From: Elusimicrobia bacterium GWA2_56_46 | Lineage (GTDB): Bacteria; Elusimicrobiota; Elusimicrobia; Elusimicrobiales; UBA9959 | Assembly: GCA_001799575.1 (NCBI GenBank) | Contig: MGTT01000018.1 | Span: forward strand, 13,404-77,403 | DNA length: 64,000 nt | Direction of reading: 5' to 3' | Shown: one piece after another, positions 2,502 through 55,286 of the stretch | Layout: every line of letters starts with the position of its first letter | How positions within the stretch are numbered: position 1 is the stretch's first letter | Made by a program: the position numbers and the translations under genes | The notes under the pieces: generated by a model | What the model saw: only the letters and a program-made list of their open reading frames with translations | Databases searched by the model: none | What the model was told of the DNA's origin: nothing

Positions 2502-3839
2502 ATGGATTTTATAGATACAGCAAAAGTCTACCTCCGCGCGGGGAAAGGCGGGGACGGCTGCGCCTCGTTCCGCAGGGAAAAATTCGTGCCTTACGGCGGC
2601 CCGAACGGCGGGAACGGCGGAAAAGGCGGCGATATTTATTTCGAGGCTTCCACGAATATCACCACTCTTTACGAGATCTCCAGGCATCCCCATATCAGGG
2701 CGGAGGAAGGCGGCCCCGGGCAGAGCAACAACATGAGCGGGCTTAAGGGCCCGGACATCGTTAATTATGTTCCCTGCGGCACCATCATAAAACTGGAAGG
2801 CCGCTTGGCGGCGGATCTCAAGAATCACGGCGACCGCTTTCTCGCGGCGCGCGGCGGGCGCGGCGGGCGCGGCAATATGTCTTTCAAGACCAAGTTTAAC
2901 ACCGCCCCCAGAATCTCGGAGAACGGCGAGCCAGGGCAGGAGTTCACCGCCGAGCTGGAACTGAGCGTCCTGGCGGACGTAGGGCTGGTGGGTTTCCCCA
3001 ACGCCGGCAAATCCACGCTGCTCGCCACCATCTCCGCGGCCAGGCCCAAAGTCGCGGCCTATCCTTTTACCACCCTCAGCCCGCATCTGGGCATCGTGTC
3101 GCATAAAGGCAAAACTTTCGCCGCGGCCGATATTCCCGGCCTTATAGAGGGCGCGCACGAAGGCAAGGGACTGGGCGACTTGTTCTTAAAACACGTCCTC
3201 CGGACAAAGATGCTGATCCACCTGGTGGATCCGGCCGGTTTCGGAAAATTAAAGCCCGCGGAATCCGTTACAGTGATCGCCAGGGAACTTAAAACCTACC
3301 ATCCGGAACTGGCCAGGAAGCAGCGCATCCTCGTTGTCAGCAAAGCCGATCTGCCCGAAGCGAAGAAAGTCCACGCCGCGCTCGTCAAAAGATACAAGAA
3401 ACACCCGGTATTCCTGATCTCCGCGGCCACCGGTTTCGGGGTTACGGGTTTGCTCGACTATCTCATCTCTCTACTGCCCGGAATAAAGGCGCCGGAGATC
3501 TATAAACCGGAACCTGACGGCGACGTCAACGCCCTGCACAAGCCTGTAAAAGAGGGTTTCAAGATCGGCGAGGGCCCGGACGGACTGATGGAAGCGAACA
3601 GCGAAGCGCTGAATACTATTATCGCCATGACCAATTTCAGCCAGCCCGATTCGATCAACCGTCTCAGGCGGATCTTCAAACTTATAGGGTTGGACAAAGC
3701 TCTGAAGAAAGCGGGTGTGGTTCCGGGCGACCAGGTGAGGATAGCCGGCAGAGAGTTCGAATGGTCCGAGCACCAGGTCACCCCCCCCCACAAGCGCTCC
3801 AAGTTCGCCTACAAATACCAGACCAAAACCGGCTTCTGA
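2502..3839 (+). CDS. obg: GTPase Obg/CgtA with C-terminal OCT-like extension
   Basis: Family-typical start MDFIDTAKVYLRAGKGGDGCASFRREKF, so the internal ATG at 2502 is preferred over 2475. Gly-rich Obg fold, G1 motif GFPNAGKST, and DIPGLIEGA. Confidence 0.9.
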   Translation: MDFIDTAKVYLRAGKGGDGCASFRREKFVPYGGPNGGNGGKGGDIYFEASTNITTLYEISRHPHIRAEEGGPGQSNNMSGLKGPDIVNYVPCGTIIKLEGRLAADLKNHGDRFLAARGGRGGRGNMSFKTKFNTAPRISENGEPGQEFTAELELSVLADVGLVGFPNAGKSTLLATISAARPKVAAYPFTTLSPHLGIVSHKGKTFAAADIPGLIEGAHEGKGLGDLFLKHVLRTKMLIHLVDPAGFGKLKPAESVTVIARELKTYHPELARKQRILVVSKADLPEAKKVHAALVKRYKKHPVFLISAATGFGVTGLLDYLISLLPGIKAPEIYKPEPDGDVNALHKPVKEGFKIGEGPDGLMEANSEALNTIIAMTNFSQPDSINRLRRIFKLIGLDKALKKAGVVPGDQVRIAGREFEWSEHQVTPPHKRSKFAYKYQTKTGF

Positions 3840-3920
3840 TCCGAAAGAGGAACCGCCGGATCAGCGGGCTTTGACTAGCACCCCGCAGAAACCTATTCAG
3901 CCGGTCGTAAAAATTAATTT

Positions 3921-4496: not shown

Positions 4497-5560
4497 GGGA
4501 GATGGTCCCCCGATATCTGCACTATCAGGGTTTCTCTTCTGAAGCGGTAGCCGCGGGCGAAGGCGGTGTTGCTCAGGAGCAGCGAGGGGGTGGAGGCTAT
4601 GGTGGAATAGATCCTGAACCTTTTTATTTTCGGTTTAGCCGACGGTTCCAGCAAATTGGCCTTGGCTATCTCCTGCAGCGTGTCCATAGCCCAGTAGACG
4701 GGCCAGATAAAAGCGGCCCGCAGGGCCGGCTCGGTCTTGGGAATAGAAGCGAGGAAACCCTCGCTCAGATCCAGTTGATCCACCGCCCAGGAAATCCACT
4801 TGTAAACCACCGGGCGAAGACGCGCCATATTTCCCGGCTCAAGCAGATCTCCCGGTTTCAGGGCGACACCATCCAGCTCGGACTGCGGCAGGTAACAGCG
4901 GCCGATGCGCAGATCCGCCGACATATCCTTCAGTATGTTTGTTATCTGCAGGGCCGAGCCTATGAGCGCGGCATCCGCTTCCGAGGGCAATTGCCCGAGA
5001 TTAATATTGCAGCGGCGGATATGCTCCCGGTAAAGACGCGCCCAGAAAACGCCGGGTTCTCCTCCGATCAGGGCGCAGTATTTTTTGAGGTCGTCTTCGG
5101 TCCCGAACGCGGCCGCGGCCGGCGCGGCGCCCGACGGCTGAAAGGCGTCCAGATCCATTTCCATTCCCCCGGCCACGCCGTTCACCAGCGCTTTAAGCTG
5201 GGCCAGCTCCCGCTCCGGCAAGGCCGCGTAAAAAGCGGCGATCTTTTCAAATTTTGAAAGCAGCGTCTTTTCTTTCTTGTCGGGTACGCTCCGCGCGGCC
5301 CGTTCTATCAACTCCGCCAGCCGCCCGGCGTTGGTTTTGTCCTCCAGGCCCCTGAAAAGCCCCAGAATTTCCCGCTTCGCGGCGGCGTCTATACCCGGAC
5401 AGTCCGCTACGGTGTCCATGGCGCGGGCGACAAGGTAGCCCAGGGCCAGGGAAGTCCTTAAAGGTTCCGGCAGGATATTAACGCTGAGATAAAGTGTTCT
5501 TGAAACCGCTTTCAGAATATTTTTCAGATCCCCGTAAAAACCGGTTTGGACATTTTTCAT
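4493..5560 (-). CDS. Squalene/phytoene synthase family protein
   Basis: 355 aa with SRTLYLSVNILP...YLVARAMDTVAD and NILKDMSADL, two DxxxD-type Asp-rich motifs. Its stop overlaps the convergent GNAT stop. Confidence 0.7.
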   Translation of the reverse strand: MKNVQTGFYGDLKNILKAVSRTLYLSVNILPEPLRTSLALGYLVARAMDTVADCPGIDAAAKREILGLFRGLEDKTNAGRLAELIERAARSVPDKKEKTLLSKFEKIAAFYAALPERELAQLKALVNGVAGGMEMDLDAFQPSGAAPAAAAFGTEDDLKKYCALIGGEPGVFWARLYREHIRRCNINLGQLPSEADAALIGSALQITNILKDMSADLRIGRCYLPQSELDGVALKPGDLLEPGNMARLRPVVYKWISWAVDQLDLSEGFLASIPKTEPALRAAFIWPVYWAMDTLQEIAKANLLEPSAKPKIKRFRIYSTIASTPSLLLSNTAFARGYRFRRETLIVQISGDHLP

Positions 5561-5569
5561 AAATAGATC

Positions 5570-6700
5570 TTATCGGCCGCCACCCCCGTCCCTTCCGGGA
5601 ATTATCTTGCCCAGGACGCGGGGGCCGCGCGCGCCGGTGGCGGACGGGCAGTGGTTCCTCTTTCCGCCAAGCGCCAGCCAGGCAAGCAGCGCGAAGCAGG
5701 CGGGCTCCTTGGCCAGCGGGTCTATACCCAGTTCCGCGATGCTTTTTACTTCGATGCCGGGAAGAACCGAGGCAAGATTGCGCATCAGAACCGGATTCAG
5801 CGCCCCCCCGCCGCTGACTATCAGCTCGCGCGTCCCCCGGGGGGCGAATTTTTTGAAAGCCAGGGCGATGGACGCGGCCGTAAAATAATTCAGGGTGGCC
5901 AGGAGATCGTATTTATTTTTACGATCCGGCCGGCCGAAATGTTTTTTAATGAAACCCGCGGAAAACTCGCTGCGATCCAGCGACTTCGGCGGTTTCGACG
6001 AGAAGAACGGGAGTTTCAGCAGCTTCGACACTTTCTCCCGGTCGGCCCTGCCAGCGGCGGCCCAGCGCCCCTCCGCGTCATAATTCTTTTTTCCCCCGCT
6101 CAGTATGACGGCCGCCGTATCCATCAGCGCGTTCCCCGGCCCCGTGTCGAAACCGGAAGTCCTGATCCCCTTTCCGACAAAAGAGATATTTCCCACGCCG
6201 CCGATATTCTGCAGGGCCGCCGGCCGTCCGCCGCCGAACAGATATTCGTCCATAAAAGGAATGAGCGGCGCGCCTTCCCCGCCGGCCGCCATATCCGCCG
6301 GCCTGAAATCCGAGACCACGGGCCGCCCCGTTTCCTCGGAAATGAATGACGCTTCGCCTATCTGCAGGGTGCTGCCGCCCCTGCCCGGCTGATGAAAAAC
6401 GGTCTGGCCGTGGGATCCTATTACCGATATGTCTTTACAGGAGAGCCCGTGTTCCCGGCAGAAACGCTTTACCAGGCCGGCCCAGATACGGCCCAGTTCG
6501 AAATCAAGGGCGGAAAGTTCCGGGGCCTTCATGTCCATGGCGGAAAGTATGCGCCTTTGCAGTCCGGCGCCGTAGGGATAGGTTTTGTGCGCCAGAACTT
6601 TGAGAGGTTTCCCGCACCGCGCGACGGAACACAGCGCTATTGAGAGCCCGTCGGCCGAAGTCCCCGACATCAACCCGAGAATTTTTATAATTTTCTTCAT
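5570..6700 (-). CDS. anmK: Anhydro-N-acetylmuramic acid kinase
   Basis: N-terminus ILGLMSGTSADGLSIAL, 376 aa, with the AnmK/ASKHA pattern. Confidence 0.88.
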   Translation of the reverse strand: MKKIIKILGLMSGTSADGLSIALCSVARCGKPLKVLAHKTYPYGAGLQRRILSAMDMKAPELSALDFELGRIWAGLVKRFCREHGLSCKDISVIGSHGQTVFHQPGRGGSTLQIGEASFISEETGRPVVSDFRPADMAAGGEGAPLIPFMDEYLFGGGRPAALQNIGGVGNISFVGKGIRTSGFDTGPGNALMDTAAVILSGGKKNYDAEGRWAAAGRADREKVSKLLKLPFFSSKPPKSLDRSEFSAGFIKKHFGRPDRKNKYDLLATLNYFTAASIALAFKKFAPRGTRELIVSGGGALNPVLMRNLASVLPGIEVKSIAELGIDPLAKEPACFALLAWLALGGKRNHCPSATGARGPRVLGKIIPGRDGGGGR

Positions 6701-6713
6701 AGTACAGCGATAT

Positions 6714-6748
6714 GAGCTTATGGCCTAAAGCTTATGGCTTATGGCGGG
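6714..6748. repeat. Heptamer-periodic array R1
   Basis: GAGCTTA TGGCCTA AAGCTTA TGGCTTA TGGCGGG. Spans the anmK-cysK spacer and the last codons of cysK (AISHKL*). Confidence 0.7.
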
Positions 6749-7678
6749 CGCGGCGCCATCTTCAAACAGCCAGGTGCTCAGGTAACGCTCGCCGGTATCG
6801 GGCAGAATGACCACTACGGTCTTCCCGGCGGCCTCCGGCCTGGCGGCCACAAGGGCGGCGGCATGCATGGCCGCTCCGCCGGAGATGCCGGTACAGAGGC
6901 CCTCTTCGGTCATAAGACGCCTGGCCATGAGGCCCGCCTCGTCGTCCCTGACCCTGATAATTTCGTCTATGCTCTCTGTTTTGAGCACGGCCGGAACAAA
7001 ACCCGCGCCTATGCCCTGTATTTTATGCGGCCCGGCCGGGGATCCGGAAAGCACCGAAGAGGTGTACGGTTCCACGGCTATTATTTTTACGCCGGGCCTG
7101 CGCTCTTTAAGGACCTCCGAAACGCCGGTGATGGTTCCGCCGGTGCCGACCCCGGCCACAAAATAGTCCACTTTTCCGCCGGTGTCTTTCCAGATCTCCT
7201 CGGCGGTGGTCTTACGGTGGCTCTCCGGGTTGGCCGGATTTTCGAACTGCTGCGGCATGAAAGCGCCGGGATTCGCGGCCAGAAGTTCTCCGGCTTTGAT
7301 TAAGGCGCCTTTCATTCCCTCCGCGCCCGGAGTCAGAACCAGTTCTGCCCCCAGCGCTTTTAAGATCTTGCGCCGCTCGACGCTCATGGTTTCCGGCATG
7401 GTCAGCATAAGCCGGTAGCCCCGCACCGCGCAGACGAAAGCAAGCCCTATGCCGGTATTACCGCTGGTCGGCTCTATTATCAGGCTCCTTTCCTTTATAA
7501 GTCCCCTCGCGCGGGCGTCTTCCAGCATGGCGAGGGCTATGCGATCCTTGACGCTGGACATCGGGTTGAAAGATTCAAGCTTGGCCAGCACCAGGGCCCG
7601 GCCGGCGGCCGTCACGCGGTTGATCCTGACCAGCGGCGTGCCGCCTATAAGTTCCGTGACGTCGTTGGCGTATTTCAT
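6725..7678 (-). CDS. cysK: Cysteine synthase A (O-acetylserine sulfhydrylase)
   Basis: Contains [12 protein letters not shown]...[14 protein letters not shown]...[10 protein letters not shown]. The start at 7678 gives an ATGA overlap with the cysE stop. The longer ORF start at 7741 would overlap cysE by 67 nt. Confidence 0.92.
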
Positions 7679-51721: not shown

Positions 51722-52408
51722 ATGGATATGGAAACCGATAAATTCGCGCGATATGCGGCGGTAAGGAACACTATAAACAAGGTTCTCTGCGTGGTAATAA
51801 AAACGGCGGGCGACAATGTGACCGTGCTCACCAGGAACGGAGAGAGAATGACTTTCAAGGCCCAGTACCTGGAACCGGCGCCGGAAACCGAAGCGGAATC
51901 GCTCAAGCTGATGATAGAGCAGTTGAAAAGGGAGGAGGAGAGCAAAAAAACGGGCGCCGTGAGAACGGCGGATCCAGAACTGATACGCTCCGCCTGCGAC
52001 AAATTTATCCGGCACATCGCCCTCAGATATCCCAAGTCGGGCGAAGCTTTCAGGGTCTTCTGGTCCGAGATCCTGGCCATAGCCGGGGATCAGCCCGGCA
52101 GAACCTGGGAGATGAAGCCCAACACTTCCAGCAATCCCTGCCCGGTACTGAAAGTCCACAACCCGGCCACTCAGAAGCGGGTATACTGCGTGAATCTGCT
52201 GGCCGGTTACGGTCTGAGGATGGAGATCAAGAAAGAATTCCTGCCGCCGGGCTGCGAGGCTCTGTTCCCCATAGACCACGCCATGTTCGGCGCGGGCCGG
52301 GCCGTGGAGCTGAGTTACAGGGATTTCACCCCGGAAAAACGCAAACCCTACCTGGACTGCATAAAAACCATTTACGAAAAAGACGTCCGCCCGGAACAAC
52401 CCGCCTGA
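51722..52408 (+). CDS. Hypothetical protein
   Basis: The open frame runs 51587-52408. The first 45 codons, starting at a TTG, are encoded by the heptamer array, so I prefer the ATG at 51722 or 51728, just after a TATAAT. No recognisable motifs. Confidence 0.5.
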   Translation: MDMETDKFARYAAVRNTINKVLCVVIKTAGDNVTVLTRNGERMTFKAQYLEPAPETEAESLKLMIEQLKREEESKKTGAVRTADPELIRSACDKFIRHIALRYPKSGEAFRVFWSEILAIAGDQPGRTWEMKPNTSSNPCPVLKVHNPATQKRVYCVNLLAGYGLRMEIKKEFLPPGCEALFPIDHAMFGAGRAVELSYRDFTPEKRKPYLDCIKTIYEKDVRPEQPA

Positions 52409-52464
52409 ACCATACGACGGCCGGATTTGCGGCCTCTCTCCTCCAGCCCAAATCTCCCGCTGAC

Positions 52465-52605
52465 AATGGAAAATGGCGGCGGGTTGCAAGTTCGGGGGCC
52501 TGCCAGCCATGGGGCCCATCGGGCCTGCGGCCGGCCCGGCGACTTCGCGCCGGTTCCTCCTCGGCCCGATCCGACCCATGGCTGTCACCCCTCCAACTTT
52601 ACCCC
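52465..52605 (+). repeat. Structured ~141-nt repeat, copy A
   Basis: Homologous to the reverse complement of 53692-53833. Arms 52504-52525 and 52563-52584 pair 10+1+8 bp around a GC-rich apical hairpin (CCGGCG ACTTCG CGCCGG). Confidence 0.75.
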
Positions 52606-52811
52606 TTATTGGATTGGGGATGATAGTCCCTTGACTTATTCCCGCTTTGGGACAGCCGTGAGCCAAAAGGCTCGGGACGGTATAGGCCCAAAAACTGTTG
52701 ATTAATAGGCCTCTGTGCTCATGCTTAAGAAGTGCTGGGAAGCCATAATATATTCAAGCGAGTACGAGACGTAGGTTCAAGACGGCAAAATCGGATGAGG
52801 AGGGTAAATTT

Positions 52812-53306
52812 ATGAAGAGAGTCATGATAGTTGCGGTTATGATGACTATTTCGGATGCTTCTTATGCTGCCGGGAGTGCCAGAAGCCAGCTTTCAGGCCT
52901 ATCGGCTGATATTTCTGTTAACGTACCGGCCGAGGTTAACACTACAAAGCAGATTTTCAAAACCAAGCTCCCCCCTACTACTGTCCGGGAATGCGCGGAA
53001 CAGATACAGGTGCTTTCCAGGCAACTGGACGCCGTCACCGATCATGCCCAGGCCAGTGCCATTCTGACTGAGATGGGGAGAATTGATTCTTTACTGCAGG
53101 AACTAAACCGGCCATCCTCTGCTTTGCCACCGTACAATCCTAACCCTGCCACTGTCCGGGAATGCGTGGAGCAGATACAGGTGCTTTCCAGGCAACTGGA
53201 CGCCGTCACCGATCATGCCCAGGCCAGTGCCATTCTGACTGAGATGGGGAGAATTAATTCTTTACTGCAGGAACTAAACCGGGCATACATGGATAATTCC
53301 TTGTAA
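52812..53306 (+). CDS. Small exported protein with two near-identical 44-aa helical repeats
   Basis: GAGGAGGG SD and signal peptide MKRVMIVAVMMTISDASYA. The segment TVRECxEQIQVLSRQLDAVTDHAQASAILTEMGRIxSLLQELNR occurs twice. Confidence 0.65.
   Translation: MKRVMIVAVMMTISDASYAAGSARSQLSGLSADISVNVPAEVNTTKQIFKTKLPPTTVRECAEQIQVLSRQLDAVTDHAQASAILTEMGRIDSLLQELNRPSSALPPYNPNPATVRECVEQIQVLSRQLDAVTDHAQASAILTEMGRINSLLQELNRAYMDNSL
52980..53282 (+). repeat. Two 132-bp direct repeats (3 mismatches) separated by 39 bp inside the CDS at 52812-53306
   Basis: 52980-53111 and 53151-53282, period 171 bp. Confidence 0.85.
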
Positions 53307-53394
53307 CTGACCTCTCCTTAAATCTGAAAATAACGCTTCCTATCGCAGTCTGTGTTGGCGTCTGGACTGGCAACCCTCCGTCTCCTTAATGTTT

Positions 53395-53503
53395 TTCTGG
53401 ACAGGCCGCAGCCCTGGCCGCAACGTCCACCCCGAACTTGCAGCCGCCGGCGCCGGGAGCGCCATTTGCGGTTAAATTTTTGGCGGCGGGGTACAGGGGA
53501 TAA
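53395..53503. repeat. Rearranged or partial copies of the structured repeat (C)
   Basis: 53395-53470 resembles B 53761-53830 (…CCCCGAACTTGCAGCC…GCCATTT…). 53481-53503 (TGGCGGCGGGGTACAGGGGATAA) resembles the other end of B at 53685-53707. Confidence 0.55.
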
Positions 53504-53504
53504 A

Positions 53505-53547
53505 GTGACACACAACTTAATTAAGCAGGAATTAAGTTGTGTGTCAC
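53505..53547. repeat. Perfect 18-bp stem / 7-nt loop hairpin
   Basis: GTGACACACAACTTAATT aagcagg AATTAAGTTGTGTGTCAC. It occupies the position where copy B has its 20-bp stem. Confidence 0.8.
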
Positions 53548-53683
53548 CCTTATCCAAAGTTGGTGCGTTTCCAGACTTCCGTGGCCCCCATTAAAATCAT
53601 CATCTCTTCATTGGAAACCATCTTGCAATTTGGGCGCCTCGCGGGCAAAATAAAGGTTTGTTTTTTAAGCTGTATTTGGAAGG

Positions 53684-53833
53684 ATGGCGGCGGGGTATAA
53701 TTGGAGGGGTAGCGGCCATGTGGCTCTTCGGGCCGAGGAGGAACCGGCGCGAAGTCGCCGGGCCGGCCGCAGGCCCGAAGAGCCACATGGCTGACAGGCC
53801 CCCGAACTTGCAGCCCGCCGCCATTTCTCCATT
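53684..53833 (-). repeat. Structured ~150-nt repeat, copy B (complete)
   Basis: A perfect 20-bp stem pairs 53715-53734 with 53772-53791, and an outer 11-bp stem pairs 53684-53694 with 53814-53824. The apical region is the same as in copy A. Confidence 0.8.
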
Positions 53834-53841
53834 CCCCCCCC
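53834..53841. repeat. C8 homopolymer tract between repeat B and the putative promoter of the 53890 gene
   Basis: CCCCCCCC at 53834-53841, followed by TTGCCG-17 nt-TAAGCT and a (TA)4-5 stretch. Confidence 0.6.
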
Positions 53842-53889
53842 TTGCCGCGCGCGGTTCTGTCTGGTAAGCTATATATATAGGAAAAGCCG

Positions 53890-55281
53890 ATGAGAACTGA
53901 ATTATTTCTGGCGTTGCTTCTTCTGCCGTTGCGGCCGCTTGTAGCGGCGGGAGCGGGCGAGGGCGTCCCCTGGGGCTCCGAGACGGACGGGCAGTACCGC
54001 GCCTGGGACTGGATCTCCGCTTTTACCGAAGAAGACAGGAACACCTGGGACGGCCTTGACGCCGACGGACAGGAAGCGCTCCTGAAACGCGCCGGGGACG
54101 CCTGCCTGGCGGCCGACAGAGCGTCGCTGGCCGCGCAAACACGGGGAGAAGCCGGAGTGCTCTCCGCGCTGCCGGACGAAACGCTTGACCAGCTTTCTAT
54201 CTGCGTTGAAAACGGCAAAACCAGGGCGGGTGCCTTAAGGGAGAAACGGGACAGGCTGAATCAGATAATACTCCGCTCTAAAAACCGACAGCTTTCACGG
54301 GCGGACCTGACTTGGCTTGAAGCCAACTCTATACGGCTTAAAGATCCCTCTTTTAACGACGCGGCGGCGGCCGGGGAAATAGAGCGGCAGAATAAGACAG
54401 CCCAAAAGAGAAGCCGGAACGCGGAAAAGAAATATTCGAGATTAAAGGAAGGAAAACCGCTGACTTCCGCCGGCCTCGCCTCGATCTATGATGGTTCCGG
54501 ATCGAAAGGCAAGGATTCGCCGCAGTACCCGGAGACAATCGCCCTTAAAGATAGAACAAATGCGAAGCTTTCCATCCCCGGGCCGGAAACGAGGGGCCCC
54601 AGGAAAAAACTGACTTCCTCCGCCCCGCCCGAACTGGCGCTTGCCCCGGACAAGATCCGGAACGGTTCCCCAAAAGCGGGGGAAGAGACGAGAGTAGAAA
54701 GGAAGATTGCTTCTCCATTCCCTGAGGAGGATGTGGCGCAGCTTGATAAAGTGGTTCAAAAGTTAAAAAGCAACTGGCTTGAGAAAGGCCACACTTCCGG
54801 CAGATGGGGGAATCTCAAGCAGACTCTCCACATGGCAAAAAAACAGGCGGACGGCACCGGTTCCGGCTGCCGCGACTGGAGCGAGGAAGTCTCCATGGCC
54901 ATAAACCGCGATCCCCAGGCAGGAAAAAAATACGAGGCCGGCGTCCTTTGCGGAGCTAAAGTCCCCTACCTGGCGCAGCATTGCGTCACGGTTTTTTATC
55001 CTAAAGGTTCCGACCCGAACGATCCGTCGACCCAAGTCTGGCACTATGACGCCTGGGCGTCGAAAACCAAAAGCGGCCCCGTGGAAGAGCAGCTATGCTC
55101 CAATCCGATCCCTATCGAACAGGATTTCACTTCTAAATGGCCTTTCGGGCAGGTTCCGACCGGAACTCATCATATAAGCTTTTACGGCATTAAGAAAACG
55201 GGGGATCCCGAAATCATCAGAGAACTAGGCGGGTATCAGACGAACATGGTTTTCAACCGGGAATGCCCCTCCGGCAGGTAG
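53890..55281 (+). CDS. Exported hypothetical protein, C-terminal transglutaminase/papain-like Cys-His-Asp candidate domain
   Basis: Signal-like N-terminus MRTELFLALLLLPLRPLVAAGAG and a charged low-complexity middle. The C-terminus has GSGCRDWSEE, then about 37 aa to AQHCVTVFYP, then about 23 aa to WHYDAW. Confidence 0.6.
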   Translation: MRTELFLALLLLPLRPLVAAGAGEGVPWGSETDGQYRAWDWISAFTEEDRNTWDGLDADGQEALLKRAGDACLAADRASLAAQTRGEAGVLSALPDETLDQLSICVENGKTRAGALREKRDRLNQIILRSKNRQLSRADLTWLEANSIRLKDPSFNDAAAAGEIERQNKTAQKRSRNAEKKYSRLKEGKPLTSAGLASIYDGSGSKGKDSPQYPETIALKDRTNAKLSIPGPETRGPRKKLTSSAPPELALAPDKIRNGSPKAGEETRVERKIASPFPEEDVAQLDKVVQKLKSNWLEKGHTSGRWGNLKQTLHMAKKQADGTGSGCRDWSEEVSMAINRDPQAGKKYEAGVLCGAKVPYLAQHCVTVFYPKGSDPNDPSTQVWHYDAWASKTKSGPVEEQLCSNPIPIEQDFTSKWPFGQVPTGTHHISFYGIKKTGDPEIIRELGGYQTNMVFNRECPSGR

Positions 55282-55286
55282 TACCT

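Follow-up and report, generated by a model that had tools for sequence, protein, structure and literature searches.

What kind of element is represented by two GC-rich hairpins that stand in opposite orientation on either side of a small orphan gene? We addressed this question in a 64,000-nucleotide (nt) stretch of Elusimicrobia bacterium GWA2_56_46 (contig MGTT01000018.1, positions 13,404 to 77,403; hereafter, the window), comparing it with related loci that we cite by our own labels (L002, L335 and so on). A preliminary description of the window had proposed an unclassified, non-coding, hairpin-forming repeat family with compensatory changes, and this proposal is borne out by our analysis. 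[quoted passage not shown] We consider it probable that the hairpin is a new MITE-like or intergenic mosaic repeat of ~150 nt, structure-constrained and GC-rich, paired copies of which bound small mobile cassettes.

Copy A occupies 52465-52618 and copy B 53679-53832. The better-pairing strand, referred to as the model strand, is minus in A and plus in B, and the covariance model of the family scores the copies at 165.7 bits (E = 5e-50) and 154.7 bits, respectively. Scanning the window with this model returned exactly these two copies, with the opposite strands at 38 bits and all else at 11 bits or less. BLASTN aligned A with B at 88.7% identity over 142 nt, and full copies were found nowhere else in the 64 kb. 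The inverted arms (52471-52605 and 53692-53826) measure 135 nt, lie 1,086 nt apart and are 89% complementary, where about 85% identity in opposite orientation had been estimated by eye. Copy B folds strongly: its arms pair at 20 of 20 positions (53715-53734 with 53772-53791), an outer 11-bp stem (ATGGCGGCGGG/CCCGCCGCCAT) closes the fold, both as described earlier, and against shuffled sequences it stands out as RNA (-104.2 kcal/mol, z = -10.4) and as single-stranded DNA (-58.6, z = -9.0). Copy A folds weakly against shuffles (z = -2.4 to -3.9) and its right-hand P1 arm is degraded; across 130 nt it is 97.7% identical to the family consensus.

The two double substitutions that preserve pairing between A and B, G:C to T:A (pair 50:141) and A:T to T:A (pair 58:135), were reproduced. 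Among 37 copies aligned with MAFFT, for which we also computed an RNAalifold consensus, B alone carries them, and it is evidently the derived copy of the pair. B represents a variant in which an internal loop that is open in most copies has closed into the perfect 20-bp stem, and of the 14 sites at which it departs from the consensus, 9 are concentrated in the 20 nt that close this loop (Fisher p = 6e-6). This clustering suggests that B arose in one templated event, or comes from a closed subfamily, and not that A and B were compensated stepwise.

The extent of the element became apparent from an empty site. In the alignment, positions 1400-1477 of L335 correspond to window 52336-52413, and from the very next base (L335 1478) the match resumes at window 53835; 52414-53834 is therefore a discrete block that is present or absent as a unit. 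The gene order in L335, as in L334, is RadC, a p273-like gene, 59 nt and a p463-like gene, and no hairpin was found in L332-L335. The block is 1,421 nt long and comprises an outer module, A, the orphan gene p164, remnants of further copies, an 18-bp hairpin and B. Its junctions are 52413/52414 and 53834/53835, the right edge coinciding with the outer end of B. A direct repeat resembling a target site duplication (TSD), CCAT, is found in the junction alignment at 52410-52413 and again at 53828-53831, where it overlaps the last outer bases of B; the empty site has TCAT, once. The insertion lies between the stop codon of p273 and the promoter of p463, a 463-aa protein downstream of B with ten relatives in all. 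The promoter-like sequence of p463 is intact in the empty site, outside the A-B segment, and is therefore not part of B: the earlier claim that B abuts the promoter region of the gene at 53890 holds for the adjoining position, whereas the promoter itself was there before B. The view that A and B bracket the 52812-53306 gene as inverted repeats is not only confirmed but extended, since A and B are, by this comparison, the ends of a composite insertion carrying p164.

The interval between p273 and ThiF is a variable spot more generally. L335 has p463 and lacks the A-p164-B block, and the closest species, L056 (ThiF 90% identical), is without the entire 52409-55286; in place of the p273-ThiF interval it has a ~200-nt spacer (L056 5178-5375) holding a hairpin of a related "family 2". 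Conversely, a clean spacer of 81 nt in the window (3840-3920) corresponds in L018 to mosaic repeats that include the hairpin and extend over at least 330 nt. Presence and absence at orthologous sites, as in MITEs, is thus seen in L335 against the window, in window 3840-3920 against L018, and in L056. At the p273-ThiF spot of L066 we observed an unrelated RNase H-like gene, an exonuclease and a 515-aa secreted protein.

Could the pair instead serve to invert the DNA between its copies? The preliminary description had raised inversion of the 1.1-kb segment. Such inversion, whether site-specific or homologous, would make A and B a phase-variable switch for p164. Inverted repeats of 135 nt with 89% identity, 1,086 nt apart, speak for such a switch, but the 12 contigs available from independent assemblies all have the same A-B orientation, with no alternative seen. 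They are 100% identical across 52301-53950 bar assembly gaps, the single gaps of L050 and L051 being an N-filled scaffold gap and a 23-nt deletion within A. In addition, no invertase is present in the window, the p463 promoter-like sequence is external to the segment and already stands in the empty site, and ongoing gene conversion between the arms is disfavoured by their 89% identity with clustered differences. We therefore regard an inversion switch as very improbable.

The repeat family extends far beyond the window. It comprises more than 130 copies of 140-180 nt from at least 12 Elusimicrobia metagenome-assembled genomes (MAGs) and from metagenomes, with covariance-model scores of up to 171 bits. 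From the genome collection we recovered 16 loci with an exact 41-nt core and 46 with a 20-nt apical seed, and at least 80 metagenome loci found with the 20-nt seed added ~88 further copies. Copies number at least 16, 11 and 8 in three MAGs. They are frequently located at the ends of contigs, and some are in tandem (L043), nested or split by other insertions. In ~0.28 Mb of unbiased Elusimicrobia DNA around ThiF genes we obtained one weak hit, so that A and B, 1.1 kb apart, form a local cluster. The window lineage belongs to groundwater Elusimicrobia MAGs (e.g., GCA_001799775.1). Six seed matches in other phyla were similar in the seed itself and no further, and the seed was absent from 2.9 million viral contigs, leading us to reject a viral origin. 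One contig binned as "uncultured archaeon" (L007, CAZJQY010000101.1) has a full hairpin copy together with both outer boxes, and is probably mis-binned. Our literature search on repeats in Elusimicrobia found no paper, and a 2024 survey of MITEs mentions neither the phylum nor IS1380. Taken together, the family appears confined to Elusimicrobia and is apparently undescribed.

Since open reading frames (ORFs) overlap both copies (52427-52705 and 52473-52634 on plus, 53600-53824 on minus), with ATG starts after GGAG-like sequences, we asked whether the repeats might encode small proteins. Copies differ by indels of 1, 2 and 25 nt (the 25-nt insertion marks a subfamily), their lengths range over 149-181 nt without favouring multiples of three, and the ATG of the window ORFs is missing from most subfamilies. 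Period-3 conservation, which the preliminary description had named as a sign of coding, was tested and is absent: variability by codon phase is 0.20/0.18/0.18, with no excess at third positions. Conservation tracks base pairing rather than codons, as that description had argued. The repeat is evidently non-coding, the similar "peptides" over A and B are on this evidence a by-product of it, and we give a protein-coding role practically no chance.

What is conserved is the fold. The consensus structure contains 30 predicted pairs, with 97.6% of cells paired. Eleven pairs have changed on both sides, compared with 3.4±1.1 in column shuffles (none of 500 reached 11) and 1-4 in slid controls. The P1 arms form terminal inverted repeats, as expected of a MITE (e.g., TGGAGAAATGGCGGCGGG / CCCGCCGCCATCCTTCCA); their sequence is lineage-specific, and they always pair. 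The basal stem is wholly different in some lineages with pairing kept (in L036, CGAAAAACCGGCGCCG / CGGCGCCGGTTTTTCG), the enlarged set includes a whole-helix exchange from TCGGGCC/GGCCCGA to TTTAGTC/GACTAAA, and the 4×4 internal loop of the commonest subfamily (GGGTTGGA / TGGGCCCC) is fully paired elsewhere by many different sequences. On the model strand, consensus pairs include 31 G·U against 9 A·C. By energy, too, this strand folds better (90 of 97 copies), but the minimum-free-energy structures of the two strands contain G·U pairs in equal number; our case for asymmetry therefore rests on the balance of G·U to A·C at consensus pairs and not on energy. These comparative patterns show that selection maintains the pairing, and does so preferentially on one strand.

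A second constraint lies at the junction near the apex. In the window type, the motifs GCCGAGGAGGAAC and CGCAGGC stand on either side of the apical hairpin. Diverged copies located through adjacency and not through the apical seed, which we term type II, retain the outer shell (P1, GGGGTGAC…/…GGCAGGACCCC). Their long stem is a different one; it covaries between copies, in six distinct sequences, and ends in an invariant 24-nt loop, A-CCC-GCAGG-NN-GCCGAGGGAAC-G. The two types have in common the local arrangement CC(C)-GCA-GG / CC-GA-GG(G), opening toward opposite ends, which amounts to a circular permutation. At an orthologous site after uvrC, type II copies of two species have different stems and the same loop. 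Type II hairpins occur at L002 1238-1370, L012 1427-1559, L138 943-1075, L151 ~1526, L254 3021-3155 and L255 ~7368-7429, and are absent from the window. As a plain MITE recognised at its termini would not be expected to conserve a permuted junction, we treat this conservation as evidence for a partner that would be specific to both sequence and structure.

The fold may act as RNA or as single-stranded DNA. The hairpin could primarily be a functional structured RNA made from the model strand, such as an antisense or terminator RNA or a protein-sponging hairpin, with the spread of copies being secondary, as argued in parallel for ERIC, Correia and REP transcripts. Several of the features above fit this proposal: the excess of G·U over A·C (31 to 9), the better-folding model strand in 90/97 copies, and the conserved unpaired elements (the GAGGAGGAA bulge, the CGAAGU loop and the GCA/GA junction, which survives circular permutation), as well as the constant loop on differing stems at the post-uvrC site. 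Downstream of the hairpin the model strand has a U-rich tract, and some copies lie upstream of 16S rRNA genes. On the other hand, Rfam 15 at gathering thresholds matched nothing in the window or in 22 loci, and its permissive mode on 52350-53950 returned generic long-hairpin miRNA models only, the highest-scoring being the plant MIR1437 hairpin, with 37.6 bits where the gathering threshold is 168; the cmsearch that had been suggested thus yields no family that explains the repeat. A consensus scan detected no promoter or terminator inside the hairpins, and in a GTATAAT of the basal loop the key -10 positions are not conserved across copies. Relative to downstream gene starts, orientation is unbiased (24/24), and insertion polymorphism, nesting, tandem arrays and carriage inside an insertion sequence (IS) likewise speak against this proposal. 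We consider a primary RNA function rather unlikely. An RNA role, whether antisense, terminator or protein-binding hairpin, is nevertheless compatible with the data and does not exclude the MITE-like reading.

Returning to the repeat as the boundary of cassettes, we examined how copies are arranged. Inverted pairs with the polarity of A and B, in which the model-strand 3' ends point outward, account for 7 of 7 independent cases (p = 0.016). Pairs 0.3-5.5 kb apart enclose an XRE-type helix-turn-helix (HTH) gene, a BrnT/BrnA-like pair, ORF6N genes, a lipoprotein, DUF2971, an AbiEi-like gene and, in L014, a protease/porin/IS block, while the outer neighbours are core genes (uvrC, murJ and a T2SS-F gene). 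The spacer between uvrC and the T2SS-F gene ranges from 0.58 to 3.7 kb across five genomes, and its extra genes are bounded by hairpins. Genes whose 3' end falls within 120 nt of a hairpin run in the direction of the non-model strand at 39 of 49 sites (p = 4e-5). Flanking genes are diverse overall (housekeeping, toxin-antitoxin, defence), and the clustering around small secreted-protein genes that had been remarked on in the window therefore does not generalise.

In the constraint on one strand, the conserved permuted junction and the orientation rule, the hairpins recall the biology of integron attC sites (PMC2727003), and they could be attC-like single-stranded recombination sites of the type found in clusters of attC sites lacking integron-integrases (CALIN), with the bottom strand folding and the recombinase encoded elsewhere. 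Chromosomal integrons have attC sites that are highly similar within a genome, and the hairpins are likewise highly alike within a genome. They are imperfect palindromes of 120-180 nt with unpaired features that distinguish the strands, close to the ~120-nt VCR-type sites. In 39 of 49 cases, the strand that folds better is antisense to the gene with an abutting 3' end, just as the attC bottom strand, which is the one recombined, is antisense to the upstream ORF (PMC2727003). Same-orientation series flank small accessory genes, including BrnT/A and an HTH antitoxin-like gene, another likeness to attC arrays. However, the pairing boundary triplets AAC (R'') and GTT (R') are the only conserved sequence feature of attC sites (PMC2727003), and these boundaries are absent: the hairpins end in GGCGGCGGG…CCCGCCGCC or lineage variants, and the order of the two triplets is reversed, within an inner segment that pairs poorly. 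In attC sites, an unpaired central spacer, extrahelical bases and a variable terminal structure tell the strands apart; with no R or L boxes here, the strand-distinguishing bulges and loops have no assignable counterparts among them. Around the arrays examined there is no integrase; these arrays comprise 4 sites at most and finish in an inverted copy, unlike an array with integrase and attI or a same-orientation CALIN; and copies are dispersed singly between housekeeping genes rather than gathered in one array. Fixed-polarity inverted pairs, cassette-less tandems, nested insertions and location inside an IS are likewise atypical of attC. Given the missing AAC…GTT boundaries and integrase, we did not file the hairpins as attC sites, and consider this identity decidedly improbable.

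For the MITE-like reading, a link to an IS family comes from L014. Positions 5104-6921 of this locus hold an IS with 17-nt inverted repeats (IRs) and a 448-aa transposase of PF13701 (IS1380-type; E = 1e-50), and the hairpin is internal to it, following the left IR and preceding the start of the transposase. Also in this locus, an element of 278 nt (1083-1360) combines the same IRs and hairpin but has no transposase, which makes it a true MITE. The same left end with the hairpin recurs in L021, L138 and L013, and the window copies belong to the L014 hairpin subfamily (89% identity). The IS1380 family makes short duplications, and the 4-nt repeat flanking the window insertion agrees with this. 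The same IRs can also carry an unrelated interior, as in a second MITE derivative, L015 1106-1331; we had considered it as an "empty" version of the hairpin-bearing MITE and rejected this. Its interior (…GGGTGACGGGGGATCTGGATTAGCGAAACCGTACCGGAAGGAGCC…) has a structured look and is found again close to hairpins in L008, L009, L023 and L040. The hairpin is, on the evidence of these contexts, a module carried in several shells.

Among known elements, the closest are the MITEs that form one long palindrome: ERIC/IRU of enterobacteria (~127 nt), Correia of Neisseria (~100-155 nt) and QMITE2 of Coxiella (PMC10969869, PMC3184786). Like these, the repeat is small, non-coding, multi-copy and intergenic, the whole element being one long hairpin; it occurs in both orientations, nested or in tandem, present or absent between relatives, and at least one version (L014a) is derived from an IS by loss of the transposase. 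Here, instead, the sequence is GC-rich, the central junction and apex are most conserved while the terminal stem varies by lineage, one strand is constrained in its pairing, an orientation rule applies at gene 3' ends, no cognate transposase with the hairpin's own ends is seen, and a TSD is not firmly established. A precedent for paired copies as cassette ends exists in Acinetobacter, where identical MITE pairs flank and move class 1 integrons (PMC10969869). As there (figure 3 of PMC10969869), two inverted repeats bound cargo that is inserted as a block with short direct repeats; in the window the cargo is a single orphan ORF, the ends are 89% rather than fully identical, one end has an extra 51-nt module, and mobility is putative.

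REPs, by comparison, are palindromes that measure 20-40 nt, have a conserved tetranucleotide at the 5' end and flank the gene of a RAYT (HUH Y1) transposase. REP/BIME and NIME/RIME mosaics (PMC3184786) are alike in being clusters of palindromic modules in variable intergenic spots, the modules here being small GGCC hairpins, a GGACAGCCGTG…CACGGCTGTCC palindrome, the large hairpins and CCCGCCC boxes, and recognition of a structure on one strand is plausible here too. The hairpin, however, is ~150 nt long, and neither a GTAG-type tetranucleotide nor a RAYT was seen, no genome-wide search having been made for them.

Several observations weigh against a plain MITE. Typical MITEs are AT-rich (PMC10969869), unlike this GC-rich repeat. 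The window copies and most others lack the IS1380-type IRs, no IS was found that shares the hairpin's own termini, and no transposase or recombinase was detected in the window, in agreement with the preliminary description, or near 10 multi-copy loci; the 20 flanking proteins of multi-copy loci include no recombinase. The ends of the block are asymmetric, with the left edge 51 nt beyond A. CCAT is short, one base off the TCAT of the empty site and overlaps the end of B, so that a TSD is not established, and single copies show no consistent target duplication. With one empty-site comparison, precise deletion in the L335 lineage is formally inseparable from insertion. The strand-specific wobble bias, the orientation rule at the abutting upstream gene (39/49) and the junction conserved in two permuted topologies would all be unexpected of a plain MITE.

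In the MITE-like interpretation that we favour, the unit would be mobilised in trans, its enzyme reading either the folded single strand or the ends of the hairpin unit, with an IS1380-type transposase and a structure-specific recombinase as candidates. The conserved junction motif would then be the recognition site of the mobilising enzyme or of another protein, and strong hairpins may, as a side effect, insulate the inserted gene transcriptionally. One family was found repeatedly beside the hairpins: in a clustering of 381 neighbouring ORFs, ORF6N (PF10543) was the sole family to recur next to hairpins in different contexts, and the clustered neighbours included no transposase but the IS1380 ones of L014/L021. 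ORF6N proteins could be a cognate DNA-binding partner or merely frequent cargo. Six distinct ORF6N genes (L002 1451-2062; L029 1076-1690; L188 3021-3560; L208 3317-3643 and 4829-5371; L025, truncated) are each co-oriented with, and within ~120 nt of, a hairpin, and two have hairpins on both sides. A bolder idea, to which we assign a low probability, is that the hairpin is the site of an undescribed, integron-independent cassette-shuffling system of Elusimicrobia. A trans-acting protein may read the GCA/GA-GGAAC junction on the folded strand antisense to the upstream gene, and hairpin-bounded cassettes may be inserted and excised with fixed polarity between core genes; ORF6N could be a partner or accessory, and the two topologies could present the same protein-binding junction.

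The family matters for the study of a phylum that is almost wholly uncultured and whose mobile DNA is undescribed beyond standard IS annotation. It breaks assemblies, with contigs ending in repeat copies, and it marks the borders of small accessory-gene islets (toxin-antitoxin, defence-type) between core genes; the window offers a concrete case in which an orphan gene would have been delivered as a hairpin-bounded block. For a selfish repeat, the fold is unusually constrained, and the covarying stems, the favoured strand and the junction that survives permutation together point to a specific protein or RNA partner. Should this partner be a recombinase acting on folded single strands, the family would represent a second, integron-independent route of cassette mobility; should the fold act as RNA, it would be a new multi-copy class of structured RNA. 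The alignment and covariance model provide an immediate annotation tool for Elusimicrobia genomes.

The cargo itself, p164 (52812-53306, plus strand), is an orphan ORF of 164 aa with a signal-peptide-like N-terminus and an internal tandem duplication. It matched no Pfam family, and among 5.8 billion proteins its only relative was the same gene with one repeat unit. The direct duplication spans 143 nt (52973-53115 and 53144-53286) with a 171-nt period and 96% identity, and the repeated unit is 57 aa. Other assemblies of the same locus have a 107-aa p164 with one unit, reflecting either assembly collapse or a true length polymorphism.

Further pieces of the block are recognisable between p164 and B, and the preliminary account of rearranged partial copies followed by a perfect 18-bp hairpin was reproduced at 53400-53449, 53481-53499 and 53505-53547. 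By repeat comparison, the first, on the plus strand, is the 3'-arm remnant of a third copy in B orientation (GACAGGCC…CCCCGAACTTGCAGCCGCCG). The second, also on plus, is the remnant of a copy's 5' start (TGGCGGCGGGGTACAGGGG) and runs straight into the third, an unrelated hairpin at 53498-53555, with a perfect 18-bp stem (53505-53522/53530-53547) and imperfect extension on both sides. Beyond A, within the inserted segment, the outer module contains a small GC hairpin, GGCCG-gatttg-CGGCC (52419-52434), and comparable small GGCC hairpins stand on the same side of many other copies. Between it and A lies a putative degenerate GGCTGTCCCAAA box (CAGCCCAAAT, 52444-52453), assigned from its resemblance to conserved flanks elsewhere in the family. 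Inward of A there is a GGCTGTCCCAA box (52647-52657, minus strand), which in L007 occurs on both sides of the hairpin in inverted orientation. As a general repeat this box was rejected, its single occurrence in the window being at chance level. Next to it, at 52660-52673, a GAGCCAAAAGGCTC mini-hairpin beside copy A is related to small elements that are inserted into hairpins.

The hairpin is often the target of such small insertions, at identical positions in independent copies: L137 ~1591-1796, L145 12261-12409, L188 3646-3798, L013 ~2460 and L045 ~1001. One inserted element (AGCCCTTTTGGCTC…GAAGCCAAAAGAGCTGGGC) sits after GCAGGCCC and another (TCATTAGAGGTTCCC…) after CCTGTCAC. On the reverse strand of L018, ~290-330 is a REP-like perfect palindrome, GGACAGCCGTG-cgttaa-CACGGCTGTCC, made of the GGCTGTCC box that flanks many hairpins, and small GGGCC-N4-GGCCC hairpins accompany this box. 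In L173 (6883-7017) the apical hairpin is precisely missing (…GGAACCGG|CCGCAGG…), which fits a deletion between flanking short CCGG repeats.

The family 2 hairpin (AAGGAAACGGCAGGCCTGC…GGCGTGCCGGGGGCATGGGGCTGCCGGGCACGC) has its first ~30 nt, a leader, in common with the window family and is often in tandem; we located it at L010 263, L033 2835, L038 444 and 819, L039 490, L045 280 and L056 5257. In two MAGs, copies of the window family lie 0.6-0.8 kb upstream of 16S genes, namely in L043 (2990-3242, in tandem; 16S at 3836) and L015 (1374-1672; 16S at 1-543). ARAGORN found no tRNA or tmRNA in the window or beside the smpB-adjacent copy in L020. Finally, an Elusimicrobia MAG contig (L002 7224-7294) contains a 2'-dG-II purine riboswitch (RF03165, 84.6 bits) that is unrelated to the repeat.

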